Position numbers and translations under genes: made by a program. Source: Promethearchaeota archaeon (GTDB lineage Archaea; Asgardarchaeota; Lokiarchaeia; Sigyniarchaeales; SOKP01). Taken from it: DNA of 64,000 nt. Below are positions 11,682 to 61,731 of the stretch, one piece after another. Positions within the stretch are counted from its first letter, which is position 1, and every line of letters starts with the position of its first letter. Location: NCBI GenBank assembly GCA_048941265.1, contig JBHLNT010000002.1, forward strand, positions 20,087-84,086, written 5' to 3'. Under the pieces are notes generated by a model. That model was not told the origin of the DNA. It worked only from the letters and a program-made list of their open reading frames with translations, and searched no databases.

Positions 11682-11813
11682 TATTGAAATAAATTGATAA
11701 TTATATTAAAAGATTCTTTTAATCTTTTAGAGAAGAAAATTTAGGCATCTAAAAGTTTTTTATAGTAAGATCTGTAATATATTATTTATACAACTCTGTG
11801 AGGAAGAAATTTC

Positions 11814-27316: not shown

Positions 27317-27334
27317 AAGTACGTTTCCTATTAT

Positions 27335-27769: not shown

Positions 27770-27788
27770 GTTCTATTTAATTAATTTT

Positions 27789-30083: not shown

Positions 30084-30088
30084 CCTAA

Positions 30089-30733: not shown

Positions 30734-30736
30734 ATT

Positions 30737-32128: not shown

Positions 32129-32130
32129 CT

Positions 32131-34627: not shown

Positions 34628-34686
34628 TCCTAAAGTTCCGACACTTTCTTTTAGACTTTTTTCTTTTGAAATATTAGAACACCCTT

Positions 34687-35007: not shown

Positions 35008-35318
35008 TAAAAATCATATCCCATTTTTTTTGTAATAAGTTCTGCTAAATTATCTTTACTATTTTGATAATTTAAATCAATCTTTTTTATTGCTTCACTG
35101 AATTTTTTCTCAAACTTTTCAATATAATCATTAATTTCTTTTGAAACATCTTTTATAACCGAATTTACAAATTCATTTTTTTTTTCAAGTGTTGATTTTA
35201 AATCGTTTTCTAATTGTTCTTCTATCGATTGAATATCAGTAGAACTCTCTTCTTTTGCTTTATTAATTAAATTTTCATAAACTTTTTCTATATCACTTAA
35301 CATTTCGAAAAGATTCAT
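35007..35318 (-). CDS. A/V-type ATPase subunit H (G), peripheral stalk
   Basis: 103-aa all-helical coiled-coil protein within the ATPase operon; start/stop overlap with subunit F. Confidence 0.7.
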   Translation of the reverse strand: MNLFEMLSDIEKVYENLINKAKEESSTDIQSIEEQLENDLKSTLEKKNEFVNSVIKDVSKEINDYIEKFEKKFSEAIKKIDLNYQNSKDNLAELITKKMGYDF

Positions 35319-35359
35319 GGAGCATCGTTTCTTTTTTATAATTATATTAATTTTGTAAT

Positions 35360-36403: not shown

Positions 36404-36451
36404 ATAATCACCTAAAACCTCAAAAATTTTGCAATAAATATTAAAACTCCA

Positions 36452-36835
36452 TTAAGCTGGAATATTTGGGATTTTCGTCCACAAGAGTATTGCAATGATC
36501 AGCCCGTAGACAGCAAGAGCTTCACATAAAGCTACAACTAAAAAAGCTTTAAAAAAAGCTTCTTCTCTTTCAGTCAATGTTGCTATCGCAGAGGTGCCAA
36601 CTGTTCTTAAAGCCAAACCACTTCCTAGTATACCCAAGCCTACTGCTATTCCTGCACCTAAACCAAGCATTCCTGCTGTTCCGGCTTGATAATACTTTAA
36701 ATTATCTGAGCTTGTACCCTGAGCTGCCGCAAAAATGATGATTCCGTTGACAGTGAAAAATACAACCGCAATTAAAAATAATTGGTAAAATACAAGTAAT
36801 GAATAAAATTTTTTTTTACCATTCATAAGTATCAT
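36452..36835 (-). CDS. atpK: A/V-type ATPase proteolipid subunit K (c): single hairpin plus N-terminal hydrophobic leader
   Basis: GAGIAVGLG..GSG helix and ALCEALAVYGLIIAILL with the carrier Glu. Confidence 0.93.
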   Translation of the reverse strand: MILMNGKKKFYSLLVFYQLFLIAVVFFTVNGIIIFAAAQGTSSDNLKYYQAGTAGMLGLGAGIAVGLGILGSGLALRTVGTSAIATLTEREEAFFKAFLVVALCEALAVYGLIIAILLWTKIPNIPA

Positions 36836-41838: not shown

Positions 41839-42894
41839 ATGACGATTAATAATCCAAATAATTTGCGTAAATATCGTTTTGATCCTTTTCTTAATAATCT
41901 TCATGGATGGATTGATTCTTTTAAATTCAATAAACAATCAGGACAATTTTCAGTCGTTAGAGGTTGGAATAAACCCTCATTATACGGCATATGTGATATG
42001 ATTTATAATTTAGTAATACCAAATGAGTTACACTCCTATATTAAATCTCATAATAATGAAGAAATCGATGATTGGATATCTGTTATTAAGTTGTATCAGG
42101 ATAAGAATACCGGTTGGTTTAGGGAAGGAAGATTTAATTACGCATATCACTTTAAAGAACATAGTACTGCATTCGCAGTTTCAGTTTTAAAACTATTAAA
42201 TTCAACACCCGATCATGACTTTAAAATCTCAGAAAAGCTAAATTCCAGAAAAAAAGTGTATAACTGGTTGAAAAAAGGACCCGAATGGGGATTACTGTAT
42301 TGACCAGGCTCACATAGAGGTGGGGGAATGGGAGCTATATATGCTACCTTGGGTCCAGATTCTTATCCTCATGAGAATTTCTTTGATTGGTATTTTGAAT
42401 GGCTGGATAAAAATGCCGATAGAGATATAGGATTTTGGAGATTAGGATGGATTCATAGGTTAAAAAAAGATCGATTGACTAAACATGAATTAGGAGGGGC
42501 TGTGCATTATTATTGGATATATGAATTCTTAGGACATCCTATTCCTTTTCCAGAAAAAGTTATAGATTCTACGCTTTTATTACAAAAAGACCTTGGAACA
42601 TGGGACACTCCATATTCATATTGTATTGACCTAGACGCGATATTTTGTTTGACAAGATGTTGTAAACAAACTAAAGGATATAAAAAAGAAGAAATTCAGA
42701 ACGCAATAGTAAAATATCTCGATTATATAGTTGATAAAATCAATAATAAGAATTTTCTATATCAAAATTATAAATCCGCACATAAATTAACAGGTTTTCT
42801 ATGTGCAATAGCTGAAATTTACAAATTTGTACCACAAATCCTTGATTTGAAAAAAGAATGGATTCAGACTCTTGATATCACTCCGTGGATTTAA
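41839..42894 (+). pseudogene. Single ~351-codon reading frame with one in-frame TGA (42301-42303); prenyltransferase/QW-repeat-like alpha-barrel protein
   Basis: The two tracked ORFs are in the same frame: EWGLLY*PGSHRGGGMG. QW-like motifs YQDKNTGWF and LQKDLGTW fall on either side of the stop. Confidence 0.6.
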
Positions 42895-43050
42895 TAAATT
42901 AAAATACTATGTATATTAAAGGAAAAATTCATTATTTATTTTGAAAAAACTCATCGTTAAATTTTTTAATTATAATTTGATTTGCCAATTTTAAGTAATA
43001 TGTTAATAATATAATCCTTAAGATTTGGAAAAAATAAGGTAGGATCGATA

Positions 43051-43509
43051 ATGATTGATCGACTCAATAAAATGTATGAACATATAAAGGAATCTGTCGA
43101 CTCAAAATTATCAGATCCCGGATTTAAGTTCACGTGCGAAATTAATGGTAATAAATTAAGAGAATGTATTACTGAATATTTTTATAAAGAGGAATCCGAA
43201 TTAATTGCTGTAGATCGTTCAAGGCTCTTTTCAAGATCTGTGTTAAATTGTTTAGAAGTAGGATTGGAATTATGTATAAAACAAAAAGAATTAAAAATGG
43301 AGGAAATTTGTACTGAAGCCGATTTTGTTGTAATAAAAGATAAAAATAATTTATTGCATGTTAAATCAATTACCATAAAAGTAGATCCTAAAAAAGTGAA
43401 TAAAGAAATTTTAGAATGCATAAAGAAATGTTTGAAATTCTATGAATTTAGTTGTAATAAAAATTCGGTAAAGATGCCAATAAAAATTAATTTTAGTATT
43501 GCAGACTAG
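43051..43509 (+). CDS. Divergent OsmC/Ohr-family protein (copy 1)
   Basis: SRLFSRSVLNCL...C and FYEFSC align with the Cys segments of the canonical OsmC neighbours. Confidence 0.65.
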   Translation: MIDRLNKMYEHIKESVDSKLSDPGFKFTCEINGNKLRECITEYFYKEESELIAVDRSRLFSRSVLNCLEVGLELCIKQKELKMEEICTEADFVVIKDKNNLLHVKSITIKVDPKKVNKEILECIKKCLKFYEFSCNKNSVKMPIKINFSIAD

Positions 43510-43638
43510 CAAAATTAACTATTTATTCTAATAAGATTAAAATATCATTGCTAAGATTTATATAATAATATAGTTGAAAAATCACTTCATATTCAATTAT
43601 AAGAAAAGTTAAAAATCATATTGTAGAGAATTATTGTT

Positions 43639-44100
43639 ATGTTTGAAGATCTAAATAGAATGCATAAAGATTTAAAAGAAATAATGGATTCAAAAGTCTC
43701 CATACCTGAATTCAAATTTACATGCGAATTAGGGGATCAAAAAAAACTAAAAGATTGTATAACTGAAGAATTTAATATAGAAGAATCTAAGTTAATTGAG
43801 GAAGATCCTACAAGATTGCTTACTAAATCCGTATTGACCTGCCTAGACTCTGGTTTAGCATTATGTATTAAACAAAAGGGATTTAAATTGGAGGAATTAA
43901 TGACCGAAGCAGAATTTCACATGATTACTGATGAGAAAGGACTATTTAATATCGATTCCATAACTATAAAATTGAATCCAAATAAGACTGATAATGTTCT
44001 GCTTGACGATATAAAAAGATGTTTGAATTTTTATGAAAAGGCATGTAACGAGAGGGCAGTCAAAATGCCAATCCTAATCAATTTTGAATTTGCCATATGA
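43639..44100 (+). CDS. Divergent OsmC/Ohr-family protein (copy 2)
   Basis: DPTRLLTKSVLTCL...C and FYEKAC; clear paralogue of 43051..43509. Confidence 0.65.
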   Translation: MFEDLNRMHKDLKEIMDSKVSIPEFKFTCELGDQKKLKDCITEEFNIEESKLIEEDPTRLLTKSVLTCLDSGLALCIKQKGFKLEELMTEAEFHMITDEKGLFNIDSITIKLNPNKTDNVLLDDIKRCLNFYEKACNERAVKMPILINFEFAI

Positions 44101-44200
44101 AAATCCTATCTTTTATTATAAAAACATTAAAAAGGCAAAATATTTGATAAAATTATAAAAATTGATTAAGATACATAATTTTTTAAATTGTGAGAACCAT

Positions 44201-44638
44201 ATGGCTGAGGAAATAAAAACAAAAGTCGGATTAAATTTAGAAAGTGGTATGCTTTTTAAATGTGATTTAGGTCAAATGAAAGTAAAAGATTGTTATATTG
44301 ACGAGGAACATCGGGAAGAAGTAGATATGTTGGGGCCAAATCCCTCGAGAATGTTAGGAACGGCCGTTTTAGGATGTTTGAGTGCGAGCTTCATATTCTG
44401 TTTAAAGAAAAGAAATTTTAATGTAAATGATTTAAACGCCGAAGCTGAAATAACCATCGCAAGAAATGAAAAAGGATTCTGGAGAGTAAAAAAAATAGAG
44501 GTGAATATAAAACCGAAAATTGACGATCCTGATGTAAGAAAACGCGCAGACCAATGTAAGAAGATGTTTGAACAATATTGTATTGTTACTCAGGCGGTAC
44601 GAGAAGGGATAAACGTAGAAGTTAATCTTGATTATTAA
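44201..44638 (+). CDS. OsmC-family protein
   Basis: IDE...GPNPSRML..AVLGCL and FEQYCIVTQAVREG, with both redox Cys; ATG at 44201. Confidence 0.9.
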   Translation: MAEEIKTKVGLNLESGMLFKCDLGQMKVKDCYIDEEHREEVDMLGPNPSRMLGTAVLGCLSASFIFCLKKRNFNVNDLNAEAEITIARNEKGFWRVKKIEVNIKPKIDDPDVRKRADQCKKMFEQYCIVTQAVREGINVEVNLDY

Positions 44639-44704
44639 TTAATCTCTTAGTTGTAAAATATATAAAATTTATCATAGAATAAAAAAAATTAAAGATGATT
44701 TAAG

Positions 44705-45163
44705 ATGGTTCGTGAAGAAAATGTGACAGTAGACATGATATTAGAGAAGGATTTAATTTTCAAGGTAAATCTTGCGCATAATAAGCTCAAAGAGCTCTTT
44801 ATCGATGAATCCATGAGTGAAAAATCCCAAATGTGGGGTCCCGATGCCGCACAGCTACTTGCGATGGCATTATTAGGGTGTTTAAATGCGAGTTTTCTAT
44901 TTTGTTTAAATAAAAGGAATTTAACTGTTGATGATTTGGAAGCTCACGCAGAAATATCTTTTAAAAAAATTGAAAAAGGGTATACTAGAGTTGATAAAAT
45001 TAATGTGAAAATTGTACCTAAAACTACTGATCCCGTTACTCTTAAAAGAATAAATCAATGTATTAAAAAAATGAAAAATGGAAATATGTTTTTTGAGGAA
45101 ACATGTATAATTACCGAATCAGTAAGACAGGGAATAGAAGTTAATGTGGATGTCGAAATCTAA
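44705..45163 (+). CDS. OsmC-family protein
   Basis: IDE...GPDAAQLLAMALLGCL and FEETCIITESVRQG. Confidence 0.9.
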   Translation: MVREENVTVDMILEKDLIFKVNLAHNKLKELFIDESMSEKSQMWGPDAAQLLAMALLGCLNASFLFCLNKRNLTVDDLEAHAEISFKKIEKGYTRVDKINVKIVPKTTDPVTLKRINQCIKKMKNGNMFFEETCIITESVRQGIEVNVDVEI

Positions 45164-48916: not shown

Positions 48917-50311
48917 TCATACCTGATTTGATAAATTAGTTATTAATCCCTCAAGTTCTTTTACCATATCTTTTGCGGCTTCAACATCTTCAGATTCAGC
49001 CGACAATAAAACCGCGTTTCTGTAGAGGGATAATTTAACATTTATAGAAACATTTTTCTCATCATCAATTATTTTTAGTTCGTTAATGATGTCGTGGTAC
49101 TTATACCCATTTAATTCGATTGTTTTTCTTAATTCATTATGAAAGGTTTCAATTACTTCCGGTAAAAGAGGAATAGTTTTATTTACTTTAATACCTTTAG
49201 GAAACCCCCTAGTTAAAGAACTTAGGAGATCGTCTTGAGAAGTCATTATTTCAAGCAGTTTTAATAAAATAAAATTACCATCTGAGAATGGCGCATAATA
49301 TGGAAAATAGAATTTTAAAGTATCAGCGGCTGCAAAACATGCCCTTTCTTCTCTAATGTGTCTCGAGATCTCTCCAGGATAATTTTCAACCTCCTTTATG
49401 GGATATCCAGCCTCCTCCAAAAATTCTTTCACGATTAGAGATGTAGAAGGAGTGGTAATAATGGTATTTCCTTTAGAATTGACAATTCTTTCTTCATAAC
49501 TTACAAAAAGCATTAGTATATCTTCAAAATTAATTTCCAATCCATTTTCATCAATTATTAAAATTCGTGAACCATCAACATCAAAACAAACACCTAAATG
49601 ACTATTAGATGCTTTCACTATATCTGCACAATTCCTAATGGTATTAATATTTGGCACCGGATTTCTTGATCTGTCCCGAAAATGAGTATTAAGCGCGATC
49701 ACTTCTACTCCAATCTCATTGAGTAGGATGGGTGATATCTTACCACTAGGTCCGTACGAGCAGTCTGCAACAATTTTAAGATCTGCTTTTTTAATTTTTT
49801 TTTTATCAACAAATTGTTGTAAAGATTTAATATAAATCTCTTCTGTTTGTGGAATACCAGTTATATGCCCAATTTCATTGGGCTCGACCCTTCTCACTTG
49901 TTTAGGATAAGTATTGAAAGAATCTATTAACTTTTCTATTTCTGCTGGTGATAATTCAATTCCTCCAGCATCAACAAATCGAATCCCAACCTCATCGCTG
50001 TATAAATGGCCTCCTGAAAAGTACACTCCACCACTAGCCCCAAATCTTCTAATAGTGAACTGCAACAGAGGATAAGTACAATCGGAAAGATTTAATAAAT
50101 TGACTCCAGTACTCATGATTCCTGAAGTATACCCACGCTTCAACATACGACTATCATTATGATAATCTCTACCCATTACGATTGATTCATTTTGATTAAA
50201 CGTACTACCATGAATTGATCCGATAGATGAGGAAATCTCTGGAGTAAAAACATAATTTGCTCGTCCTATAATTCGCCCACTTTTGTACAGCTCTCGAAGA
50301 TTTTGCACCAT
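48917..50311 (-). CDS. Phosphomannomutase-like protein lacking the catalytic phosphoserine
   Basis: PMM fold markers (GRD...SRMLK, ADCSYG, FDVDGSR); YFSGGHLY stands where active enzymes have TASHNP. Confidence 0.8.
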   Translation of the reverse strand: MVQNLRELYKSGRIIGRANYVFTPEISSSIGSIHGSTFNQNESIVMGRDYHNDSRMLKRGYTSGIMSTGVNLLNLSDCTYPLLQFTIRRFGASGGVYFSGGHLYSDEVGIRFVDAGGIELSPAEIEKLIDSFNTYPKQVRRVEPNEIGHITGIPQTEEIYIKSLQQFVDKKKIKKADLKIVADCSYGPSGKISPILLNEIGVEVIALNTHFRDRSRNPVPNINTIRNCADIVKASNSHLGVCFDVDGSRILIIDENGLEINFEDILMLFVSYEERIVNSKGNTIITTPSTSLIVKEFLEEAGYPIKEVENYPGEISRHIREERACFAAADTLKFYFPYYAPFSDGNFILLKLLEIMTSQDDLLSSLTRGFPKGIKVNKTIPLLPEVIETFHNELRKTIELNGYKYHDIINELKIIDDEKNVSINVKLSLYRNAVLLSAESEDVEAAKDMVKELEGLITNLSNQV

Positions 50312-50520
50312 TTAAATCAATAACTTTAATTTTTATAATTAATACTTGCTTTAAATTGGAAAATATATATTACATACCTCAATCAGCATATTTATTTTTT
50401 ATTATTATTAAAAGTTTAGTTATGATAAACTCTACTTATCATATGTAAAATTATTTTAGGAAAACAATCATTTAATTCTGTAATCAATTTGATCATATTA
50501 AAAATAGCTTTATACACTTG

Positions 50521-52242
50521 ATGAAAATGACTGAAAAATTAGGCTCTTTTGCGCTTGTTTTACATTCTCATTTACCATGGGTTCTTAATCATGGAGTTTG
50601 GCCTCATGGAACCTCTTGGGTGAATGAGGCTGCCTCAGAAACTTATATTCCACTTCTTCAAGAATTATATAAACTTGTAGATGATGGATACCATCCAAAA
50701 ATGACTCTTGGACTTACACCTGTTTTATGTGAGATGCTTAGGCACCCTTCATTTATTAATGACTTTTTAGGATACTTAGATGAAAAAATTGGAGCAGCAC
50801 TCCATGATAAGGAAGATTTTACAGAAAATAAGTATGAGGAAGGTCGAATAAAATTAACTAAATGGTGGGAAGAATTCTATGAAAGAGTTAAGGATGATTT
50901 CACGCATAGATTTAATAAGGATATTATAGGTGCGTTTAAAAAACTGCAAGATATGGATTTACTTGATATCATTACTAGTGGTGCTACTCATGGTTATAAT
51001 CCATTACTTTCTAAAGATAGTTCTATTAATGCCCAATTTAAAACTGCTGTGGATAATTATAAAAGACATTTTGGAAGAGAACCAACAGGAGTTTGGCTCC
51101 CAGAATGTGCGTATCGTCCCGGGTATAAATGGAAGAATCCTATAACGGGAGAAGAATATAATCGTCCTGGAATTGAGTTCTTTTTAGCTAATAATGGGTT
51201 GAGATATTTCTTTATTGATACGGCATTATTATTAGGAGGAAAGTCTCAAGGAGTTTACGCGGCCAGATTTCCCCTCCTTAAACAGTTATGGAAGCAATTT
51301 GCAGATCAATATGAAGAAATTCCCACTTCTTTCGAGAAATCCCAATATGAGGCTTATTTGGTATCAACTGATCCCTCAACTCCAGCCCCTGTAGGTTTCT
51401 TTACCCGAGATGAAAAAACGGGTATTGTGGTTTGGTCAGGAGAACATGGATATCCGGGTTGTGCAGAATATCTTGATTTTCATAAGAAGCACTATCCTGG
51501 GGGTTTGCGCTATTGGAAAGTTACAGGCCCTAAGATTGATTTAGGAAAGAAAATGCTTTACTGGCCCGATGATGTTCCAGGAAAATTAGATGAAAATGCG
51601 GGGCACTATGTTAATTTAATAAAAGACATCTTAAGAGCCCATAAAGGTGATTCTGGAAATTCTGGAATTGTTGTTGCTCCTTATGACTGTGAATTATTAG
51701 GTCATTGGTGGTTTGAGGGAAATTGGTGGTTAGCAAGAGTATTTCGTTGGATTGAAGATGATCCTGAAGTAGAATTGACACACACAAGATCATACATGGA
51801 ACAAAATCCTCCAAATAAAGTGGTATCTATTATTGAGGGAAGTTGGGGTCAAGGATCAAGCCATTGGGTTTGGTTGAATGAATGGACAATTTGGACATGG
51901 GAAAAAGTCTACGAATGTGAGGCAAAAAGTGAAGAAATTATCTCAAAATATAAAGATTCACATGATCCAAATCTTATAAAAATTTTAAGACAAATGGCAA
52001 GAGAATTGCTCTTATTGGAAAGTTCGGACTGGCAATTTTTAATAACAACTTGGTCAGCAAGAGATTATGCTGAAAATCGAGTAGCAGCGCATTATGAAAA
52101 CTTTAATAGACTTTATAAAATGGTAGAAGAATATGCCAATGGAAAATATGTTGAAGAAGGCGAATGGCATTTTCTAGGGACTCTTGAATACTCTGATGGT
52201 TTATTTGAAGCTCTTGACCTTGAACCGTTTGCAAAAAAATAA
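50521..52242 (+). CDS. GH57 1,4-alpha-glucan branching enzyme
   Basis: LHSHLPWV, ETYIPL, ATHGY, WLPECAY (nucleophile Glu), PYDCELLGHWWFEG (acid/base Asp), GSWG and ESSDWQF. Confidence 0.93.
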   Translation: MKMTEKLGSFALVLHSHLPWVLNHGVWPHGTSWVNEAASETYIPLLQELYKLVDDGYHPKMTLGLTPVLCEMLRHPSFINDFLGYLDEKIGAALHDKEDFTENKYEEGRIKLTKWWEEFYERVKDDFTHRFNKDIIGAFKKLQDMDLLDIITSGATHGYNPLLSKDSSINAQFKTAVDNYKRHFGREPTGVWLPECAYRPGYKWKNPITGEEYNRPGIEFFLANNGLRYFFIDTALLLGGKSQGVYAARFPLLKQLWKQFADQYEEIPTSFEKSQYEAYLVSTDPSTPAPVGFFTRDEKTGIVVWSGEHGYPGCAEYLDFHKKHYPGGLRYWKVTGPKIDLGKKMLYWPDDVPGKLDENAGHYVNLIKDILRAHKGDSGNSGIVVAPYDCELLGHWWFEGNWWLARVFRWIEDDPEVELTHTRSYMEQNPPNKVVSIIEGSWGQGSSHWVWLNEWTIWTWEKVYECEAKSEEIISKYKDSHDPNLIKILRQMARELLLLESSDWQFLITTWSARDYAENRVAAHYENFNRLYKMVEEYANGKYVEEGEWHFLGTLEYSDGLFEALDLEPFAKK

Positions 52243-52269: not shown

Positions 52270-53421
52270 TTATATTTGTTGTCCTAATTCAAGCGTTTTA
52301 TCCTTAATTTGCGAATCGCTACTTATTTTACAAAAAGGAGCAACAATTGCTTTATTTAATACGACATTGTCACCTAATTCACAATCGTTACAAATAATCG
52401 ACTCTGTAATGTGGCATCCATGCCCTATCTTAACATTGTCCCACACAACAGATTTTTCAATTACAGTGTCCTCTCCTATTACTACATGATTCCCAATTGA
52501 AGTTAATTCTTTAATTTTTACGAAATTCTCAAGTCTAACATTTTTTCCAAAACAAGTTGGTTTCTCGATTTTTATATCTTGACCTGAATCAATGATGCCC
52601 ATAACAAAAATACCATCATATTCTTGGCCGTTTGGTGTAATAGGCCAACTGTATTTTCTTAATAAATCCCAATTTGCCCACATATAAGTTTGAGCATTTC
52701 CGCAATCAAGCCAGTAATAATCTTTTACATATCCATATAGATTATAGTCATTTTCAAGAAGATATGGAAAAATTTCCCCTCCAAAATCCATTAGTCCCGT
52801 CTCCCGTAATACGTTAGCGATTTCCTTTTTAAAACAGTAAATTCCCGTATTGATGATATTGGTATGAAGAAATAAATCTGTTCTTTGAGCCATACTACTT
52901 AAATATAATTCCATAGGCATCGGTTTTTCTAAAAATAGATAAATTTTACGATCATTATCTAATAAAACCACTCCATATTGAGTTGTATGGCTTTCTACGG
53001 TTTTCATAGAAATTGTAGCAATCCCTCCCTTCATAGAATGAAAATCCATGAAATTTTTCACTGGAAGATTCGTAACAATATCTGCCATTGAAACAACAAT
53101 TTTTTCCGAGTCAATTTGGTCCAATAATAATCTATACGCATCAGCAGTTCCTTTACTTTCATGAATTTCACATTCTAACTCCACATCTCCCAATTTATCC
53201 CGAGTCCACGTTTTCTCAACGTATTCCTTTAACATATCCCCCATATAAGCTAATGCTAAAATGATATGCTTAATATCTGCATATATAAGATGAGCTATAG
53301 AATAATCTACCATAGGTTTATTGGTTACCTTGACAAGTGGTTTTGGAATTTGAGCAGTTAAGGGCATTAAACGAGAACCTTTACCACCAGCCAAAATTAT
53401 TGCAGACCATTCTCTCGTCAT
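52270..53421 (-). CDS. NDP-sugar synthase (mannose/glucose-1-phosphate nucleotidyltransferase) with a left-handed beta-helix
   Basis: LAGGKGSRLMPLT..PKPL, KGTADA, YGVV, FLEKP, INTGIY, DFG.EIFP, YWLDCG and hexapeptide repeats. Confidence 0.9.
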   Translation of the reverse strand: MTREWSAIILAGGKGSRLMPLTAQIPKPLVKVTNKPMVDYSIAHLIYADIKHIILALAYMGDMLKEYVEKTWTRDKLGDVELECEIHESKGTADAYRLLLDQIDSEKIVVSMADIVTNLPVKNFMDFHSMKGGIATISMKTVESHTTQYGVVLLDNDRKIYLFLEKPMPMELYLSSMAQRTDLFLHTNIINTGIYCFKKEIANVLRETGLMDFGGEIFPYLLENDYNLYGYVKDYYWLDCGNAQTYMWANWDLLRKYSWPITPNGQEYDGIFVMGIIDSGQDIKIEKPTCFGKNVRLENFVKIKELTSIGNHVVIGEDTVIEKSVVWDNVKIGHGCHITESIICNDCELGDNVVLNKAIVAPFCKISSDSQIKDKTLELGQQI

Positions 53422-53643: not shown

Positions 53644-54909
53644 TCAATGTGTAATTCCTTGTCTAATTTCTGCTGCAGCTTCATGAGGTAACTTCCTCGC
53701 AACACGCATATCATCAGCCATTTCTGCTCCTCCTATTATTTCATGTGGAATAATATCACCAAACATATGAAAATCTGCATCATAGCCATAAGGGCAACAA
53801 TTCAATAATATATTTCGATTTTTATCGATATTTATATTATCTAAACCTATGAAGATTGTTTTTAGGGATTTTGCTAAATCCTGAATTTGATTTATGTTTA
53901 ATTGAGAAAATCTTCTTATATGTTCGTTAGGGTGGAATCGTATATGATAATTTCTAACAGGACTTCCGGTTGTATAAAAAGTCCAGTAGGTTGTTTTTAA
54001 TATAATTCGGTCAGTTTCTCCGTGAGATGTTTCACATAAATGACAATTATCCCCCATTTCTTTAAAAGCTTGAAGATAACCTTCCAATCGACTTCCATGC
54101 CCATCCATATTTAAATCGATATAAACTTGGCCATGAATTCGAGGTTGTGAGCCCCCTACTTTTGTACCTATATTAAAAAAGGGAGAAACTGGAATATCAT
54201 AATAATCTCTCTCTATTGCCTCCTGAACACTATATAGAATTGCTGCCTTCATAGAAAGGAATATACCTGCTAAAACATCATCAGGAATTAATTTGAAACA
54301 AAAAGTTGGATAGAAATCCCTGGAAAGAGAAACTAAATTTATACCTTTTGCCAATTTTAAATGAGAGGGTAATTTTTCAACCACAGTATCATAAATTTCG
54401 GGGTCAATAATCCGAGCCATAGAAGGATATCGATTTATTAAAGTTATTGCTTTACATGAATCAGGCAATCTCTCTATTCTATGTGGTTTATCTGAGAAAG
54501 GAGAATCTCTTCTCTTTTCATCCTCCGTTATAATTATTGTAAACCCATCTCCTATTTTTTTTCCATCATCATACAAGGGTTTACCTTCTGTAACTGCTGT
54601 AAATACATCTTTAGCTTCTTCTAATATCTGTTTTGTACAATCAATATCTTCACTCTTCTTATCTAAAATTTTAAATCCTTCTGGTCTTCGACCCCGAATA
54701 GGACTTAAATATGCATAATGCCCATAATATCTTACTCGATCTTCTCGAAGTCCAAACTCTTTTGTTCGAATAGCGCGTATTGATAGGGGATCCCATCTCT
54801 TAATTGGAAGCTCATAAGTGGTTTTAAATGTATCTTTCGCAATAATGCCCCATTCCATAAATTTTGGAATATAATTTTCTTCTCTATTTCCTTCTTTTTT
54901 ATTTGATAT
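53644..54909 (-). CDS. GalT/HIT-superfamily nucleotidyltransferase-like protein (paralogue 1)
   Basis: SP.RG.RP, INRYP, FFN.G...GGSQPRIHGQ and CHLC. Start extended from ATG at 54858 to ATA at 54909 by homology to paralogue 2. Confidence 0.8.
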   Translation of the reverse strand: MSNKKEGNREENYIPKFMEWGIIAKDTFKTTYELPIKRWDPLSIRAIRTKEFGLREDRVRYYGHYAYLSPIRGRRPEGFKILDKKSEDIDCTKQILEEAKDVFTAVTEGKPLYDDGKKIGDGFTIIITEDEKRRDSPFSDKPHRIERLPDSCKAITLINRYPSMARIIDPEIYDTVVEKLPSHLKLAKGINLVSLSRDFYPTFCFKLIPDDVLAGIFLSMKAAILYSVQEAIERDYYDIPVSPFFNIGTKVGGSQPRIHGQVYIDLNMDGHGSRLEGYLQAFKEMGDNCHLCETSHGETDRIILKTTYWTFYTTGSPVRNYHIRFHPNEHIRRFSQLNINQIQDLAKSLKTIFIGLDNINIDKNRNILLNCCPYGYDADFHMFGDIIPHEIIGGAEMADDMRVARKLPHEAAAEIRQGITH

Positions 54910-55080: not shown

Positions 55081-56364
55081 TTAAGAAATCAATTTCCTTA
55101 TTTCTGCTGCGACATGTTCGGGCATTTTTCTGGCAACTCTCATATCATCTGCCATTTCAGCCCCACCTATGATTTCATGAGGTATTATATCCCCAAACAA
55201 GTGAAAATCTGCGTCATAACCGTATGGACAACAATTAAATATAATATTACGATTCTCGTCGACATTTAAATCATCTAATGCCTTAAAAATTATTTTTAGG
55301 GATTTGGCTAAATCTTGCATTTGATTAATTTTAAGCTGTGAAAATCTTCGTATATGTTCATTTGGGTGTAATCTGAGATGATAATTTCTTACTGGACTTC
55401 CTGCGACGTAAAAGGTCCAGAATCTGGTTTCTAAGACTATTCTATTCGATTCTCCATGAGTAGTCTCGCATAAATGGCAAGAATCTCCCATTTCTTTAAA
55501 TGCTCTTAAAAATCCTTCTAATCGTGAACCATGTCCGTCCCCATTTAAATCTACATAAACTTGACTATGAATCCGTGGTTGCGAGCCCCCAACTTTGGAA
55601 CCGATATTAAAAAATGGTGAAATTGGAATGTCATAATAATCTCTCTCGACTGCCTCAAGAATACTATATAGAATTGCCTCTTTCATTGAGAGAAAAATAG
55701 CCGTTAGAACTTCTTCAGGAATAAAATCAAATCTTAAAGAAGGGTAAAAATCTCTAGAAACTGTGACTAAATTTATGCCCTCTGCGAGTTTAGAACCCGT
55801 AGGTAACTGTTTTTCTATTAATTGTTTTATATCACGATCCACTATTCGGGCCATTGCTGGATATCTGTTTATCAGAGTGATCGCTTTACAGGAATCGGGA
55901 ATTCTTTTTATTCTATGGGGGGTTTCATGAAATGGTTTATCCCGTTTTTTTTCATCTTCAGTAATAATGATCGTAAATCCATCCCCAATTAGAGCACCTT
56001 CATCATTATAAATGGGTTTACCTTCCATAACGGCCGTGAATACATCCATATCTTCTTTAAATTCTTTTATAGAGATTGCTTTAATTTCACTCTTTTTTTC
56101 TCTAAGATTATAACCTATGGGACGCTTACCGCGAATAGGAGAAAGATAAGCGTAATGGCCGTAATGTCTATCTTGCTTCTTATGCAATCCAAATTCATTT
56201 GTTGAGATCATGGCAGTTGATAATGGGTCCCATCTTTTTAATGGGACATCGTGAATTGATTTAAAATTTTCCTTAGTAATGATTCCCCATTCCATAAATT
56301 TTGGCTTATAACTTTTTCCTAAATTACTATCTTCTTTCTCTGAAATAAAAACACATTCCTCCAT
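55081..56364 (-). CDS. GalT/HIT-superfamily nucleotidyltransferase-like protein (paralogue 2)
   Basis: Same motifs (GGSQPRIHSQ, CHLC, GGAEMAD) with long identical blocks to paralogue 1; probable start is ATT at 56346. Confidence 0.8.
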   Translation of the reverse strand: MEECVFISEKEDSNLGKSYKPKFMEWGIITKENFKSIHDVPLKRWDPLSTAMISTNEFGLHKKQDRHYGHYAYLSPIRGKRPIGYNLREKKSEIKAISIKEFKEDMDVFTAVMEGKPIYNDEGALIGDGFTIIITEDEKKRDKPFHETPHRIKRIPDSCKAITLINRYPAMARIVDRDIKQLIEKQLPTGSKLAEGINLVTVSRDFYPSLRFDFIPEEVLTAIFLSMKEAILYSILEAVERDYYDIPISPFFNIGSKVGGSQPRIHSQVYVDLNGDGHGSRLEGFLRAFKEMGDSCHLCETTHGESNRIVLETRFWTFYVAGSPVRNYHLRLHPNEHIRRFSQLKINQMQDLAKSLKIIFKALDDLNVDENRNIIFNCCPYGYDADFHLFGDIIPHEIIGGAEMADDMRVARKMPEHVAAEIRKLIS

Positions 56365-56387: not shown

Positions 56388-57269
56388 TTATTGAGATTTT
56401 ATTAATTTAACATCCATCTCAATTATACCGTTAACTTTGTATAAATCTTCAATTAGGCTATTCAACATATCTATATCAATGTCTAAATATACTTCATATA
56501 TGCACTTATCAACTTCTTGGCAAATTCCCGTAGTGAATACTAACTTTAAATTATCTTCATATTTAGATAATATTTTTGAAATTTCTTGCAAAACACTGAC
56601 GGTCATTTGTTCTCCAAACATTATGATTAAATTAAAAATTTCATCCGTTTCAACAGGGATGACATCTAATTTCAAAGCTTCTCCACGCGTTCTAAACACT
56701 AAAAAACAATGTTTCTTATTCTCAGTCAATTTACTTAACTTTTGAATCACATCGTTAGATAATTCAATATTTTTAGTTTTTTTTAATTTTGATAAAGAGA
56801 TAAGCTGCCCCTCAGTTTCGATTTTTTTTATTATTAATATCTTGTATAAATTATTAAGCTCTTCTTTTAGTAATGTAAATTTGTTCTGGATCTCTTTTTT
56901 ATTCATCTTTATAGAATCGGAATTAATATAAAATGCCTTGTAAAGTTCGGGAATATTTTTCAATTTTTCTACAAACTTTGAAAGAATGAGTTCATATGCA
57001 GAATAATCAGGTTCTTCTTCTGAAACAATTAAGGAGATCATAGCAGATTCAGAACGGCCACGTGCCCATTTTGAGTCTAAATTAAAAGCCCAATTCGCAG
57101 TCTTAAAATCAGAAGAAAAATTGTGAGTGAAAAATCCTGTGGATTCAGATTCCATTAATGATTTGATTTGATTAATATAATCATCCTCCAAACTTTTAAT
57201 TAAATTCTGAGGATTTGTTAGAAATACTTTAGGACCTAAGATTCTGTCAAAATAGCTAAGAACTAACAT
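56388..57269 (-). CDS. Longin/uDENN (folliculin/SMCR8/NPRL2-like) domain fused to a C-terminal ACT-like domain
   Basis: N-terminal LSYFDRILGPKV and FNLDSKWARGRSESAMISLIV; the C-terminal ~80 aa follow a beta-alpha-beta-beta-alpha-beta pattern ending L..L..V.GII.MDV. Confidence 0.65.
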   Translation of the reverse strand: MLVLSYFDRILGPKVFLTNPQNLIKSLEDDYINQIKSLMESESTGFFTHNFSSDFKTANWAFNLDSKWARGRSESAMISLIVSEEEPDYSAYELILSKFVEKLKNIPELYKAFYINSDSIKMNKKEIQNKFTLLKEELNNLYKILIIKKIETEGQLISLSKLKKTKNIELSNDVIQKLSKLTENKKHCFLVFRTRGEALKLDVIPVETDEIFNLIIMFGEQMTVSVLQEISKILSKYEDNLKLVFTTGICQEVDKCIYEVYLDIDIDMLNSLIEDLYKVNGIIEMDVKLIKSQ

Positions 57270-57686
57270 ATACCTATATAAAATTTTAACTTCTGTGGCT
57301 TAATTTGTTAACTATGTATAAGAATTAATTTAGTAATTGTATTTAATAAATCTTATATTTATATTTTTAACACGAATGAAATTAAAAATAAATTTCCCTT
57401 TTTTCACAGGAGAATGAAATAAATCATTGAACAAAAAGTATATCTTGAACAATTTATAGTAAATCTTATTTATATTATAATTATTGTTTAACGGTTTTAT
57501 TTAATCGAGTGACAATTTTTTTTATTCCTAATAAATTCAGAAAAAAATTTTTCCATTATATTTAAAAGAAAAAATGTGCTTAAATTTGAGGTTTAGAGTG
57601 TTTTTCAAAAAATTAACACTTTAATAGTGGCACTTAAATACGTATTAAGATTCTTTGGTAAATCTGTAAATAATTTTAAAAAGATC

Positions 57687-57732
57687 TTTTAATCGGTTGA
57701 TATTAACCCATTAAAAAAACAAGATTTATATA
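57687..57732 (+). promoter_or_regulatory. Inverted repeat (putative operator) next to a BRE/TATA element
   Basis: TTTTAAT-C-GGTT-GATATT-AACC-C-ATTAAAA at 57687-57716, then an A-rich BRE-like stretch and TTTATATA at 57725-57732. Confidence 0.5.
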
Positions 57733-57772
57733 TTATTTCATAATAAAATATATTATAAAAAAAAAGTGATAA

Positions 57773-57987
57773 GGCGACTGAATTAGTCAATTGCAACAAT
57801 ATTTGACCCCGATAGTTATATTTAGGATACTTTCAAATATATCTATGGGGAAGAGTTGGAATTTTTCGAATCCGTACTAATTGTTGCGATTTCAAATTAA
57901 ACGTTGCTAATATAAAAAAATCAATAATGATGAGATATATCAATCTGGTAAATGCATTGAAATTTTCATCCAAGATTGTAATATCTC
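57773..57987 (+). ncRNA. Putative structured 5' leader or small RNA upstream of the RHH gene
   Basis: 12-bp stem 57789-57800/57880-57891, nested CCCC-G-AUAG/CUAU-GGGG and UAUAUUU/AAAUAUA stems, and a second hairpin GAGAUAU..CAAUCUGG/CC.AGAUUG..AUAUCUC at 57932-57987. Confidence 0.5.
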
Positions 57988-58018
57988 TAACAATATTTAT
58001 ATAAAAGGGGTAATAATA

Positions 58019-58309
58019 ATGAAAATAGTCACTGTTAATGTGCCAGAATCATACATCGACGCTATAAATAAATTAATTGGTGAAAATGGTCTCTATCCAT
58101 CCAGATCTGAATTAATTCGATGTGCTGTTAGAGAATTTCTTTTAAAGGAATTAAGATTGGCGAAAAACATACCAGACTACAATAAATCTGATATTGATGA
58201 TTATGATAAGGAAAAATTTGTTCGTGTTCCCATAGTCGATTCAGAAAATAAAAAGGCTCCTGTACAAGAATTCAAAACATATAAAATAATCAAAAGACTC
58301 GAATTTTAA
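58019..58309 (+). CDS. Ribbon-helix-helix (CopG/MetJ/Arc; CdrS-like) transcriptional regulator
   Basis: MKIVTVNVP beta-ribbon and G.YPSRSELIR.AVREFL. Confidence 0.9.
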   Translation: MKIVTVNVPESYIDAINKLIGENGLYPSRSELIRCAVREFLLKELRLAKNIPDYNKSDIDDYDKEKFVRVPIVDSENKKAPVQEFKTYKIIKRLEF

Positions 58310-58443: not shown

Positions 58444-59847
58444 ATGAGCGAACAAAATTTAATTGAAGCATTCATGAATGAACTTCAATTTGATGTAAGT
58501 GACTATTTGGATTCAGAGTTATCCGATTACCAGAAAAAATTAGTTGAAGACGCTACTTTTATAATGCAAGATAATATCGTGGGTGATATCAAAAAATTAG
58601 GGGGGAATTTCCAAAAAAACAGAGAAAAATTTGACAATTTCTTAAAACGAGCTGAAACCGCAATTAAAAATGAGAAATTTAAGGATTCTGAAAAGGAATT
58701 AAAGCAATTTCTTAAAGATTACTCTAAAAAGCTGCAAGAACTTATTGATAAAACTTGTGTTGCTGTAATTCCTGTAAAAGAGCTACCCTGGGTTGATGTA
58801 TTATTTAGAAGTGTTCCTCGCATAGTATTGGATAATAAAAAAATTGAATTACTTGATAATGCAATCGCCTATTATGGGGAAATTAAGTGTGTAATCTCAA
58901 GAACTACTATCTATGGAAAAATTAAGGATGAAAAACCTTTATTTGCACCTTTAATGGGAGAATTAGAATTACAGGGATATAAAATAGATGATTCTCAGCA
59001 AGACAAACCAAAATCTCTTATTTATCTCTATATAAATGCAATTATAGAATCACTCGACTCTTCTTCAACACGGAGCCAATTGGCGAAATACCATGAAGGA
59101 TATCAACGACATGGAGAACCCATATGTGATTTCTTGATGAATGAAACAGAACTCTTAGAGACCATGGAAAAAATTCAAACTGGGTTAGACTCTGGTCGCA
59201 TTAAATCTGACATTTCAGTATGCGGAATTGCTATACCTTTTCCCTCAGATAACACTAGTCTTATAGTACTTTTAGACGAAAGCAAAGATTCAAAAAAATT
59301 TGGAAATTGTTTTGAGGGATTATTAAGATTTTCTGCCGCTTGTTGTAAAGCTCCCTCCACAGGTATAGGAGCAGGCGTAGAAAAACCAGGTCAAGTATCT
59401 CAACAACAATCCGGAGTAATAAGAACTCCTGGTGGCCAAGAATTAAAAGTCTGGACCGCAGAAGAATTGGCAGAAGAAGCTAGTAAAAGAGGAGGAGGAA
59501 TATCGCCAGATATGGATGTTTGGTCTCCGGAAGATTTACAAAAATTAGCTGAAGAGAGGGGGAGTGGGATACCTGAGGGTATGGAAGTGTGGACTCAAGA
59601 AGAATTGACGGAGTTGGCTAAAAAAAGACAAGGAGGCCTAGATATTCCAGAATGGAAACCGGATGATGACTTGATAGAATGTGTGAAGTGTGGTTACAGT
59701 TTAAGAAAAGGATGGTCTGAATGCCCTATTTGTGAGACTCCTGTAGGATCTCAAGGTACTACTGAATCTATCCCAACTTCAGAACCAGAGCCAGATGAAT
59801 CGAATTCTAAAGATCATATCTCAAATGAGAATTCAGAAAATGAATAA
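58444..59847 (+). CDS. Hypothetical protein with three 23-aa tandem repeats and a C-terminal zinc ribbon
   Basis: VW[TS]xE[ED]L..A..R.GG repeats, CVKCG...CPICE and an acidic tail. Confidence 0.8.
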   Translation: MSEQNLIEAFMNELQFDVSDYLDSELSDYQKKLVEDATFIMQDNIVGDIKKLGGNFQKNREKFDNFLKRAETAIKNEKFKDSEKELKQFLKDYSKKLQELIDKTCVAVIPVKELPWVDVLFRSVPRIVLDNKKIELLDNAIAYYGEIKCVISRTTIYGKIKDEKPLFAPLMGELELQGYKIDDSQQDKPKSLIYLYINAIIESLDSSSTRSQLAKYHEGYQRHGEPICDFLMNETELLETMEKIQTGLDSGRIKSDISVCGIAIPFPSDNTSLIVLLDESKDSKKFGNCFEGLLRFSAACCKAPSTGIGAGVEKPGQVSQQQSGVIRTPGGQELKVWTAEELAEEASKRGGGISPDMDVWSPEDLQKLAEERGSGIPEGMEVWTQEELTELAKKRQGGLDIPEWKPDDDLIECVKCGYSLRKGWSECPICETPVGSQGTTESIPTSEPEPDESNSKDHISNENSENE

Positions 59848-60007: not shown

Positions 60008-61042
60008 TTGTTAACTAATATATTTCTCTTCATAGGAAAAAATTTTCAAGACCTAAATCAGCTTAACATTTATGGGTATCCAAATGATATTATCAATTTT
60101 GATGATAAAGATACAATTAGCAAAGTGATTTATGGACATGATCATGGGGATTTAGTCTCGAATTCTAAAATTCTTAATTCTCAATTTTCACCTTCAAGAG
60201 ACCTTAGCAATGTTGAGGGGCTATACTTGATTGACAATCCCATACCCCAAATAATTGATGGTTTAAACATTTACACATCGTGTATTAATGGAAAAATTAT
60301 CATCGGATTAGTATTTGATAAAGAAGATAACCCATATGACTATAAAGATATTTTTAATGAACTTTTAGATGAGCTTTTAAATGTTGAGAAATCTTGTGCT
60401 TTTGAGGATGAGATAGAAATTGAAAACTTTTTAATTACGATTTTTATAGATATCAGAAGATTTGGAGATGAGCAAGTAGAAAGACGTCCTCAAATTGAAT
60501 TTCGATATCAGGAATCCTTTATAAAAGTATTTTTATTTGGAATTGATGATGTGGGAAAATCCTCGTTAGTAAGAAGAATCAAAACAGGTGAATTTAATGA
60601 TAACTACTTCATGCCCACTAAAAAATTCTCTATTGATTATGTTCAAGCTGAAGAAAAAGGATTCTTGGCTTTTTGGGATATGCCTGGACAACGTTCATTT
60701 CGGAAGAAGTGGCTTATTGGCCTCCAAGATTCTAACATCGTAATTTATATGATTGATGTGGCAAATCAAAGAAGGTTTGAAGAATCAAAAAAAGAATTTT
60801 GGAAAATAATAAATAGGTATGATTTACTCGGAATTCCTGTGTTGATATTGGCAAACAAGATTGATTTAATTCAACATTCAGATGAAATTACGAAAGAACA
60901 ATCTGAAAAATTAAAGAATGAAATTATCACTTACTTTGAATTTGATAAAATTCAAAATAGAGAATGGAAATTTCTTTTTACATCCGTCAAGACGAAATTT
61001 AATATCGAGACAGTTATGAAAGAAATATTTGACTTAATATAA
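60008..61042 (+). CDS. Ras-superfamily small GTPase (Arf/Rag-like) with an N-terminal ~170-aa extra domain (longin/roadblock-like)
   Basis: G1 GIDDVGKS, G2 MPT, G3 WDMPGQ, G4 NKID and G5 TSVK; TTG start. Confidence 0.88.
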   Translation: MLTNIFLFIGKNFQDLNQLNIYGYPNDIINFDDKDTISKVIYGHDHGDLVSNSKILNSQFSPSRDLSNVEGLYLIDNPIPQIIDGLNIYTSCINGKIIIGLVFDKEDNPYDYKDIFNELLDELLNVEKSCAFEDEIEIENFLITIFIDIRRFGDEQVERRPQIEFRYQESFIKVFLFGIDDVGKSSLVRRIKTGEFNDNYFMPTKKFSIDYVQAEEKGFLAFWDMPGQRSFRKKWLIGLQDSNIVIYMIDVANQRRFEESKKEFWKIINRYDLLGIPVLILANKIDLIQHSDEITKEQSEKLKNEIITYFEFDKIQNREWKFLFTSVKTKFNIETVMKEIFDLI

Positions 61043-61131: not shown

Positions 61132-61731
61132 ATGTCTAAGAGATTTAAAAAAACTAAACATGATGATCAAATCATCATTGATGAAAAAAAAGGGCAATTA
61201 TATATTGGAACTAAAGATTTACGGCTCGTTATGTTTCGTCCTATTGATATAATAGAATTTACCGAATTTGCTGGAACCAATGCTGAAGATATCATATTAT
61301 GGGTTGGAAAGACCATCGCAAAATATTTTATCGAAAAATTATTTCCCGGAGAAAACCTTAGCAATGAAGATTTATTGACCAAAAAAGAAGTTGTTTTAAG
61401 TGTTCTTGAAACGTTTGAACATTTAGGCTATGGAGTCCTAAATGCTATATTTAGAGAAAAGGAAGTATATATTCATGTTCATGATCCAGTAATTGCAGAT
61501 GAAAAAGAAAACGTAATGGCTAAAAACGTATGTATTCTTTATCAAGGTATCTTTAGTGGATTACTAGAACAATTAGAAATTGACGTAGAAGGCGAAGAAA
61601 TTGAATGTGCCCTTTTAGGGGGTGAGCACTGTATTTTTAAATACTCTCTTCTGACAGGAGAATTTGGAGCTGAAATTATCGATCCGTTAGAAAGTGAAGG
61701 GGCTATCGTTGATTTCCTAAAAGGCGTTTAA
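61132..61731 (+). CDS. V4R-domain protein (TRAPP/Bet3-related fold)
   Basis: LGYG, NVCILYQGIFSG and EEIECALLGGEHCIF Zn-site pattern. Confidence 0.85.
   Translation: MSKRFKKTKHDDQIIIDEKKGQLYIGTKDLRLVMFRPIDIIEFTEFAGTNAEDIILWVGKTIAKYFIEKLFPGENLSNEDLLTKKEVVLSVLETFEHLGYGVLNAIFREKEVYIHVHDPVIADEKENVMAKNVCILYQGIFSGLLEQLEIDVEGEEIECALLGGEHCIFKYSLLTGEFGAEIIDPLESEGAIVDFLKGV

Follow-up and report, generated by a model that had tools for sequence, protein, structure and literature searches.

A conserved Lokiarchaeal protein that joins a longin domain with GAP-type motifs to a NikR_C/ACT-like module: a candidate regulator of a neighbouring Arf-family GTPase

We analysed a 64,000-nucleotide stretch of genomic DNA from a Promethearchaeota archaeon of the Lokiarchaeia (GenBank assembly GCA_048941265.1, contig JBHLNT010000002.1; hereafter the window), and focus here on a minus-strand open reading frame (ORF) at 56388-57269 that encodes a protein of 293 residues. 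The gene encodes a two-module protein that is conserved across Lokiarchaeia. Its longin domain, judged by predicted structure and motifs, belongs to the folliculin (FLCN)/NPRL2/SMCR8 class of GTPase-activating proteins (GAPs), and its C-terminal module ends in a NikR_C/ACT-like domain. We favour the reading, with a probability of roughly 45%, that the longin domain uses Arg70 as an arginine finger on an Arf-family GTPase and is gated by the C-terminal sensor in response to a metabolic signal; the signalling role is part of this best explanation.

The product begins with MLVLSYFDRILGPKV and contains FNLDSKWARGRSESAMISLIV. Both strings had been quoted in an earlier, sequence-only reading of the window, and both are indeed present in the ORF; that reading had also put the codon of Arg70 at 57062-57060, where we read CGT, within the segment KWARGRS (residues 67-73; codons AAA TGG GCA CGT GGC CGT TCT). 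The GC content of the window is about 30%. A word-indexed search returned 79 homologues at E <= 1e-3, nearly all of 265-308 residues with about 293 being typical; where their source is named, it is a Lokiarchaeota or Promethearchaeota metagenome-assembled genome (MAG), apart from one bin labelled Hermodarchaeota. With 79 homologues, the ORF and its motifs exceed chance. An exhaustive search of 1.84 billion cluster representatives found 308 proteins at E <= 1e-3, 109 at 1e-10 and 13 at 1e-30. Pfam and NCBIfam gave no meaningful match to the protein, and a profile search of PDB sequences with its family gave no relevant one. In the Hermodarchaeota-labelled bin (locus L010) the homologue lies in two ORFs, 5032-5595 (residues 1-187) and 5722-6012 (about 200-293), which reflects either a frameshift or an assembly error.

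Conservation was assessed in two alignments. The first holds 44 of the 79 homologues, picked to cover 43-88% identity; invariant in all 44 are F7, G12, P20, F46, H49, F51, T57, A58, N59, S66, A69, R70, G71, E74, Y92 and Y114 in the N-terminal half, and T152, G154, L156, F189, R193, K200, P205, F218, G248, C250, C256, Y258 and E259 in the C-terminal half. Arg72, by contrast with its neighbour Arg70, is variable. The second is a broad-family alignment of 25 full-length distant relatives (21-49% identity) plus the window protein. Here R70, G71, P205, G248, C250 and E259 are invariant in all 26 sequences, down to 21% identity, and F7, G12, P13, P20, S66, E74 and C256 are at least 90% conserved.

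The longin domain and its conserved arginine

AlphaFold2 (AF2), run on the 44-row alignment, modelled the whole protein with a mean predicted local distance difference test score (pLDDT) of 86.7 and a predicted template-modelling score (pTM) of 0.58, and residues 1-150 by themselves with a pLDDT of 89.6 and a pTM of 0.85. Strands at residues 2-8, 12-19, 45-52, 55-65 and 73-82 and helices at 29-40, 89-104 and 109-114 follow the longin order, and a long helix (124-146) comes after the domain. The expectation that the N-terminus would model as a longin is therefore borne out, with residues 1-115 adopting that fold in confident models. Foldseek searches of the PDB with the N-terminal model gave five matches at E <= 0.001, comprising three chains of GATOR1-KICSTOR structures (9v0j_A at 3.8e-5, 9o5d_D and 9o5a_H), one of the SEA complex (8adl_S), and the longin of a Lokiarchaeota Roadblock-Longin protein (8yqg_B); next in rank are 9h4q_T, 8dhb_J (an active FLCN complex), 7t3a_B, 7t3b_B, 6ulg_N, 6ces_N and 6nzd_H. 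Chains of GATOR1, SEA and FLCN complexes make up most of the top 11 (E 3.8e-5 to 3e-3), with template-modelling (TM) scores of 0.45-0.56 by query length for the top matches. Judging by chain length, we take the chains of about 360 residues to be NPRL2 and those of the FLCN complexes to be FLCN.

The GP motif, a Gly-Pro pair at the start of the second strand, is well preserved: G12 is invariant and P13 at least 90% conserved in the 44 sequences, and the pair stands at the beginning of the AF2 strand 12-19. This motif is described as specific to the GAP longins SMCR8, C9orf72, FLCN and NPRL2, and it occurs together with an arginine finger, in the same arrangement, in a Heimdallarchaeial longin and 14 other Asgard longins, for which ArfR or Rag GTPases are raised as possible clients (PMC12290439, Traffic 2025). 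Asgard FLCN/SMCR8-type longins with both features are thus already published (PMC12290439). The window protein shares with them the longin fold, the strand-2 Gly-Pro and an arginine in a nearby loop, and is likewise a proposed GAP for Asgard ArfR or Rag GTPases. The text of that report does not describe a NikR/ACT-like fusion, a Cys hairpin or a gene neighbourhood; our comparison covers this text.

Arg70 is conserved and placed by AF2 in a loop at residues 66-72. Its conservation in Asgard homologues, which the sequence-only reading had proposed as a check, is found at every depth that we sampled (44/44, 26/26 and 148 of 155 rows of the wider superfamily described below). An arginine finger, together with a GTPase pocket that requires two longins, has been described for FLCN (R164; PMC9473554), for NPRL2 and its yeast counterpart Npr2 (R78 and R84; PMC9646525), and for SMCR8-C9orf72 with ARF1 (PMC8213707; 2020 preprint). 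NPRL2, FLCN and SMCR8, the best structural neighbours of the window protein, have an N-terminal longin, the GP motif and the arginine in common with it, and R78 and R84 lie at a distance from the N-terminus similar to that of Arg70; we infer that Arg70 is equivalent to FLCN R164, SMCR8 R147 or NPRL2 R78. The window protein differs from all three in having no detectable sequence similarity to them, no DENN/C-lobe, no known second longin and no nearby Rag-type client, and it carries a sensor domain at the C-terminus where they have the DENN/C-lobe. The earlier description of the protein as having an FLCN/SMCR8-type longin accordingly stands for the fold, the nearest solved structures and the motifs, and not for the folliculin and NPR2 sequence models, which find no match.

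The domain belongs to a large Asgard longin superfamily. A hidden Markov model built from 27 short members was aligned to 158 proteins (P0069-P0226) and the window protein, of which 155 aligned and 4 failed to pass. R70 is present in 148 of the 155 rows (two have His and five a gap), G71 in 147, G12 in 145 and P13 in 139; N59 (144), S66 (138) and E74 (136) are also widely kept. A P-loop motif lies downstream of the longin in 37 of 154 members, and the Arg-Gly pair is retained in 36/37 of these GTPase fusions, in 54/56 other fusions, in 30/33 proteins resembling the window protein and in 25/28 short proteins. We also ran Pfam on 71 of 150 listed representatives, a set made up of the full-length relatives and the majority of the proteins exceeding about 240 residues. 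An Arf domain follows straight after the longin in 21 of the 71, PAS domains occur in 26 and a histidine-kinase ATPase domain in 9, while V4R, CBS, zinc-ribbon, TPR, wHTH and NikR_C domains were each seen in a single member. Since 36/37 GTPase fusions retain Arg-Gly within the same superfamily, the Arf fusions show a functional tie between longins of this superfamily and Arf-like GTPases. Lokiarchaeal longin-Arf GTPase fusions are known (Tran et al. 2024, PMC10933270), and they belong to the same longin superfamily as the window protein. Unlike in those fusions, the longin of the window protein is separate from a GTPase and fused to a sensor, and the candidate client, encoded next to it, has an N-terminal domain of another kind.

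A candidate client GTPase

A GTPase gene lies in the window upstream of the longin gene and divergent from it (60008-61042; Table 1). Its product matches Pfam Arf at 1.6e-27, has a G domain closest to Arl3, Arl8 and Arf in the PDB (E about 4e-26), and keeps the P-loop, a DMPGQ motif with the catalytic Gln, and NKxD. We scanned species-representative genomes and obtained 17 Lokiarchaeal and 2 Thorarchaeota loci, whose ORFs were compared with the window proteins by BLASTP; counts of loci refer to the 17. The GTPase proves to be a conserved neighbour: a group of zinc-ribbon, Arf-GTPase and V4R genes is upstream of and divergent from the longin gene in 11/17 loci. The zinc-ribbon gene is found upstream on the opposite strand in 12/17, the GTPase adjoins it in 11/17 (that is, in 11 of the 12 loci that have it), and the V4R gene follows the GTPase in 10/17. 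Where the zinc-ribbon gene is absent (five loci), the upstream DNA available amounts to less than 1.2 kb in three, 3.6 kb in L006 and 10 kb in L016.

At E <= 1e-20 the GTPase family comprises 443 proteins; the 120 listed share at least 55% identity, and the family's labels name Loki-, Thor-, Hod-, Heimdall- and Hermodarchaeota MAGs, five Asgard groups. The N-terminal domain of the GTPase, about 165 residues long, is strongly conserved (invariant Y24-P25 and N108-P109-x-D111-Y112) and matches no assigned family; its named neighbour in the Protein Atlas is a cluster of which 19% of members carry NPR2, with best scores of 0.83-0.84, which makes a lead only. Elsewhere, at 11138-11683 of locus L017, 268 bases downstream of the longin gene's homologue, we observed a Rab/Ras-like GTPase of 181 residues (GDGGVGKT, WDLAGQ, NKxD); this locus has no sugar genes.

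A multimer prediction with this GTPase had been suggested as a check of the pairing. We predicted the complex from longin residues 1-150 (44-row alignment) and the GTPase (35-row alignment), together with GTP and Mg. It scored 0.50 (runs of 0.32, 0.50 and 0.50), against 0.20 for the best of three controls, with a partner pLDDT of at least 82. In calibration the mark was reached by 58 of 80 solved complexes and by 2 of 110 mismatched pairs; at scores of 0.60 or less, however, the calibration set holds only 7 of the 80 solved complexes, together with both mismatched pairs that passed, and the alignments made for this prediction and the ligands riding with it depart from the calibration. The pass may also reflect likeness only, because solved complexes of longin GAPs with GTPases exist. 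The score gives weak support to the pair, and the runs yield no consistent interface.

Several observations weigh against an arginine finger acting on this GTPase. The Pfam folliculin, NPR2 and longin models match neither the protein (E <= 1) nor its 44 relatives nor the 71 superfamily members, and profile searches of PDB sequences with the family and with the longin superfamily returned no FLCN, NPRL2 or SMCR8. The structural similarity is moderate, with TM scores of about 0.5. Eukaryotic longin GAPs function in longin pairs (PMC8213707), and no second longin partner was identified; the one-protein GAP of the sequence-only reading finds no support. As for the client, the GTPase is on the opposite strand and outside the operon of the longin gene, and its family reaches Asgard groups beyond the nearly all Lokiarchaeota/Promethearchaeota range of the longin protein; given these wider taxonomic labels, the GTPase is not dependent on the longin protein everywhere. 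Contacts agree between the complex runs to only at least 1%. The N-terminal domain of the GTPase has no similarity to the longin (0.4% probability when the families are compared by hhalign; BLASTP E 75), and correlations between distance matrices of the longin protein and those of the GTPase, zinc-ribbon, V4R and GalT-like proteins (8-10 loci) all fall at r = 0.72-0.92, with no specific signal. Lastly, the Arg-Gly pair could serve folding or ligand binding, since it is kept in 54/56 fusions without a P-loop motif, PAS and kinase fusions included.

This last observation leads to the alternative that we rank next, namely that the longin is a non-catalytic GTPase platform, acting, like the majority of longin and roadblock dimers, as a guanine-nucleotide exchange factor (GEF), an effector or a scaffold, in which the Arg-Gly loop and the GP motif serve binding or folding and the sensor still does the gating. 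Roadblock and longin platforms are mainly GEFs and only occasionally GAPs (PMC10933270), and the motif persists where no GTPase is attached, both in the 54/56 other fusions and in the 30/33 proteins resembling the window protein. Moreover, N59, S66 and E74, near the arginine, are equally conserved, as would be expected of a structural or binding patch, and the complex prediction, with its weak support and lack of a consistent interface, fits a platform too. Two observations favour the GAP reading over this one. The GP motif is absent from the non-GAP longins of adaptins, TRAPP, DENND, FNIP2 and NPRL3 (PMC12290439), and the N-terminal model comes structurally closest to chains from GAP complexes, with TRAPP, adaptin sigma, sedlin and SNARE longins ranking lower and only at E > 0.01. 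We regard a platform role as doubtful.

The C-terminal module

The C-terminal module spans residues 148-293, which we treat as one unit because it is encoded alone in Thorarchaeota. These stand-alone forms, proteins of 141 residues, occur in two loci (L019 9809-10234 and L018 1486-1911); a search for further ones among shorter proteins found only three fragments of the same family. The convergent neighbour of the lone module in L019 (10280-10882) encodes a 200-residue protein whose N-terminal part resembles a ribbon-helix-helix (RHH). In an alignment of 19 modules that includes the Thorarchaeota forms, T152, G154, P205, T246, G248, C250, C256, Y258 and E259 are invariant.

AF2 models residues 148-206 with short helices at 159-165 and 172-181 and hairpin strands at 187-195 and 198-206. 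The remainder forms a beta-alpha-beta-beta-alpha-beta unit at 210-291 (strand 210-218, helix 224-235, strands 242-252 and 255-263, helix 266-276, strand 282-291), in keeping with the ACT-like patterning that had been proposed for the last 80 or so residues. This domain leads the Foldseek matches of the whole model. Its closest relatives are NikR C-domains (3lgh_D, 3qsi_A, 2y3y_C and 1q5y_C), which share its fold at TM scores of 0.74-0.86 by target length and root-mean-square deviations (rmsd) of 1.7-3.0 over 78-85 columns; 3lgh_D is the best (TM 0.86, rmsd 1.7, 78 columns). The ACT domain of PGDH (1sc6_B) superposes with an rmsd of 1.4 across 76 columns, and ribosomal protein S6, TM1266 and AF1403 also match. 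Sequence comparisons were fainter. On the 19 modules, Pfam at E <= 10 gave NikR_C in four (best 0.0032), ACT_4 in one and ACT_AHAS_ss in one, all below the cut-off; no ACT-clan model passed the cut-off on the window protein; AsnC_trans_reg appeared below the cut-off in 1 of the 44 relatives; and the distant relative P0087 scored 22.1 bits against NikR_C, for which the cut-off is 22. A profile of the module found no match among PDB sequences, and BLASTP of P0087 against NikR found nothing. In the Protein Atlas the C-terminal part has an ACT neighbour with best scores of 0.83-0.84, under the level at which that tool gives more than a lead.

The conserved residues of the domain, as in NikR, lie on the beta2-beta3 hairpin, in the motif Cys-x5-Cys-x-Tyr-Glu. 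When aligned by eye, H87, H89 and C95 of Escherichia coli NikR, which we take to be nickel ligands, fall on the corresponding stretch, and the six-residue spacing of H89 and C95 equals that of C250 and C256. We also considered NikR proper and rejected it: there is no RHH domain match, no significant match to the E. coli NikR profile and no His/His/Cys/His nickel site, the protein having two Cys and no conserved His. Classical ACT domains bind amino acids through a glycine loop that joins strand 1 to helix 1; here this loop is kept only in close relatives (F218-G219) and not in the broad family. With invariant residues on the hairpin and no conserved glycine loop, the motif is likely, on sequence grounds, to be a metal, cluster or redox site. 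The module is unlikely to bind an amino acid: the amino-acid sensing that had been suggested finds no support, since the nearest relatives are NikR_C-like and the conserved site is Cys/Cys/Tyr/Glu instead of the ACT glycine loop. The comparison with ACT sensors of the CASTOR1 type, which act upstream of GATOR, therefore reaches no further than the ACT-type fold and the concept of a sensor tied to a longin GAP; it is an analogy only, the nearest relatives here being NikR_C rather than amino-acid-binding ACT families.

The likeness to NikR also raises the possibility of a one-component transcription regulator, with an RHH- or AbrB-like DNA-binding element before the NikR-like sensor and the longin as an input or docking domain; it would act on the sugar-nucleotide operon or on the divergent GTPase operon. 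NikR and SpoVT are models for such a layout of DNA-binding element and sensor. The top Foldseek matches of the whole model are full-length NikR chains (128-138 residues, 148-155 columns), the module is of NikR-like length and exists alone in Thorarchaeota, one homologue (P0030) is called a TrmB-type regulator by a single source, and an intergenic region of 750 bases lies upstream of the gene. Segment 166-206, a strand, helix and hairpin with an invariant proline at the end, recalls AbrB/MazE by eye. Yet the full-length NikR alignments (about 150 columns) have an rmsd of 10-16 A and score barely above the C-domain alone, and the AbrB-like segment that had been proposed before the ACT-like part was not confirmed. 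Pfam at E <= 10 found no RHH and no SpoVT_AbrB in the 19 modules, with RHH, AbrB and HTH models appearing in no more than one, and hhalign gave the broad family 0.1% probability with E. coli NikR and the C-terminal module 6.7% with E. coli MazE. In addition, the first conserved strand is acidic (E-T-E-G) and a separate RHH regulator is already encoded next door. We consider a transcription regulator quite unlikely, and return to the longin GAP on an Arf-family GTPase as the reading to be placed in its genomic setting.

Gene neighbourhood, proposed mechanism and significance

Table 1. Features of the longin gene and its surroundings (window positions)
Feature	Position	Strand	Evidence
Whole ORF: longin, linker and sensor module, 293 residues	56388..57269	-	Translation, homologues, alignment, AF2 model
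Longin domain, residues 1-118, beta-beta-alpha-beta-beta-beta-alpha-alpha	56916..57269	-	AF2 models, Foldseek
Gly12-Pro13 GP motif, start of strand 2	57231..57236	-	Alignments; motif defined in PMC12290439
Ser66-Glu74 loop between strands 4 and 5, with Arg70 (57060-57062), candidate arginine finger	57048..57074	-	Alignments, codon
Long linker helix, residues 124-147	56829..56900	-	AF2 models
Residues 148-206, start of C-terminal module: conserved TxG stretch, two short helices, beta-hairpin ending in invariant Pro205; RHH-/AbrB-like by eye only	56652..56828	-	AF2, module alignment
Residues 208-293: beta-alpha-beta-beta-alpha-beta domain, NikR_C/ACT-like	56391..56648	-	Foldseek, weak Pfam
Cys250-x5-Cys256-x-Tyr258-Glu259 on beta2-beta3 hairpin, candidate metal, cluster or redox site	56493..56522	-	Alignments
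GalT/HIT-like nucleotidyltransferase, 23 bases downstream of the longin gene	55081..56364	-	Family scan, synteny
Second GalT/HIT-like paralogue	53644..54858	-	Family scan, synteny
Sugar-1-phosphate nucleotidyltransferase (NTP_transferase and left-handed beta-helix)	52270..53421	-	Family scan, synteny
GH57 branching enzyme, nearby	50518-52242		Family scan
Phosphoglucomutase, nearby	48917-50311		Family scan
RHH regulator, CdrS-like, between both gene groups	58019..58309	+	Family scan, synteny
467-residue protein, three W-x-x-E-E/D-L repeats and C-terminal zinc ribbon, first gene of GTPase group	58444..59847	+	Translation, synteny
344-residue GTPase, about 165-residue N-terminal domain and Arf-family G domain, candidate client	60008..61042	+	Pfam, PDB relatives, motifs, synteny
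199-residue V4R-domain protein	61132..61731	+	Pfam V4R 2.3e-8, synteny

The longin gene is probably co-transcribed with the GalT/HIT-like gene downstream of it. A GalT-like homologue is directly downstream in 16/17 loci, with gaps of 15-82 bases, and in 13 loci it is followed by the nucleotidyltransferase; the exception, L017, retains the zinc-ribbon/Arf-GTPase/V4R group though the sugar genes are absent. It is improbable that the protein instead serves the GalT-like and sugar-1-phosphate nucleotidyltransferase enzymes as a subunit that regulates them allosterically, with no role for a GTPase: this gene order, the nearby phosphoglucomutase and branching enzyme and the weak ACT_AHAS_ss match of one module would suit it, but it leaves unexplained both the GAP-type motifs of the longin and the frequent Arf fusions in its superfamily, and L017 has lost the sugar genes while keeping the GTPase group and adding a Rab-like GTPase. 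The analogy behind it is acetohydroxyacid synthase, which is regulated by ACT small subunits.

The GalT/HIT-like gene is in tandem duplicate in the window and in one copy in related loci, where the single copy is closer to the distal paralogue (53644-54858) in 15 of the 16 loci holding it. The CdrS-like RHH gene, present in 13/17 loci in either orientation, always lies between the longin gene and the GTPase group; it is on the strand of the longin gene in 10 loci and on that of the GTPase group in 3 loci and the window, and L004 and L007 have two copies. The region between the longin and RHH genes (57270-58018) is AT-rich and free of ORFs of at least 60 residues; neither there nor anywhere else in the window did the Rfam and tRNA scans find a match. 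The 467-residue protein has no family match and consists of a W-x-x-E-E/D-L...R-G-x-G unit repeated three times and then a C-x-x-C...C-x-x-C zinc ribbon. Farther away in the window are an A/V-type ATPase operon at 25493-36835 on the minus strand, in which the B subunit is accompanied by two genes resembling the A subunit (25493-27316 and 32131-33963), and six ORFs of 152-188 residues on the plus strand at 41839-45163, two of which match OsmC and the others no family.

We propose the following mechanism. The longin domain would bind an Arf-family small GTPase such that Arg70 enters the active site and GTP hydrolysis speeds up; probably the longin would do this as a dimer or jointly with another longin-like domain. 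Its best candidate client would be the Arf-type GTPase of the conserved divergent operon. The C-terminal module would dimerise and gate the longin according to what its Cys hairpin senses, be it a metal, a small metabolite or an iron-sulfur or redox state. Since the gene stands first in an operon of sugar-nucleotide enzymes, with glycogen genes alongside, what is sensed probably relates to carbon or energy status. Taken in its entirety, as a metal-, redox- or metabolite-gated longin GAP that acts on an Arf-family GTPase and couples carbon-storage state to small-GTPase signalling in Lokiarchaeia, this picture is unlikely to hold in every part.

The literature that we searched contained no paper joining an Asgard longin domain with an ACT domain and none on Roadblock-Longin proteins in Lokiarchaeota, and in the ArfR preprint longins come up a single time, with no GAP proposed. 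We likewise did not find in print the fusion to a sensor, the invariant Cys-x5-Cys-x-Tyr-Glu hairpin, or the conserved pairing with an Arf-GTPase operon and sugar-nucleotide genes. The origin of eukaryotic small-GTPase regulation and nutrient signalling by folliculin, GATOR1 and C9orf72-SMCR8 is an open question, and the 2025 report of Asgard longins with GAP motifs gave no client, regulation or context. Matching regulators to Lokiarchaeal GTPases is hard because the GTPase genes are generally apart from longin or V4R genes (Tran et al., PMC10933270). The family described here is an exception, in that the genes for a GAP-type longin and for one specific Arf-family GTPase share a conserved neighbourhood with those for a zinc-ribbon and a V4R protein; the longin protein also brings its own sensor domain, and its gene has a link to sugar-nucleotide metabolism. 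It turns a speculative homology into a candidate regulator-GTPase pair that is testable with defined proteins and point mutants. If the reading is true, the pair would be the first GAP and client predicted from genomes in Asgard archaea, and the protein, uniting sensor and GAP in one polypeptide, would represent a prokaryotic precursor of the sensor-GAP-GTPase logic seen in folliculin and GATOR1.

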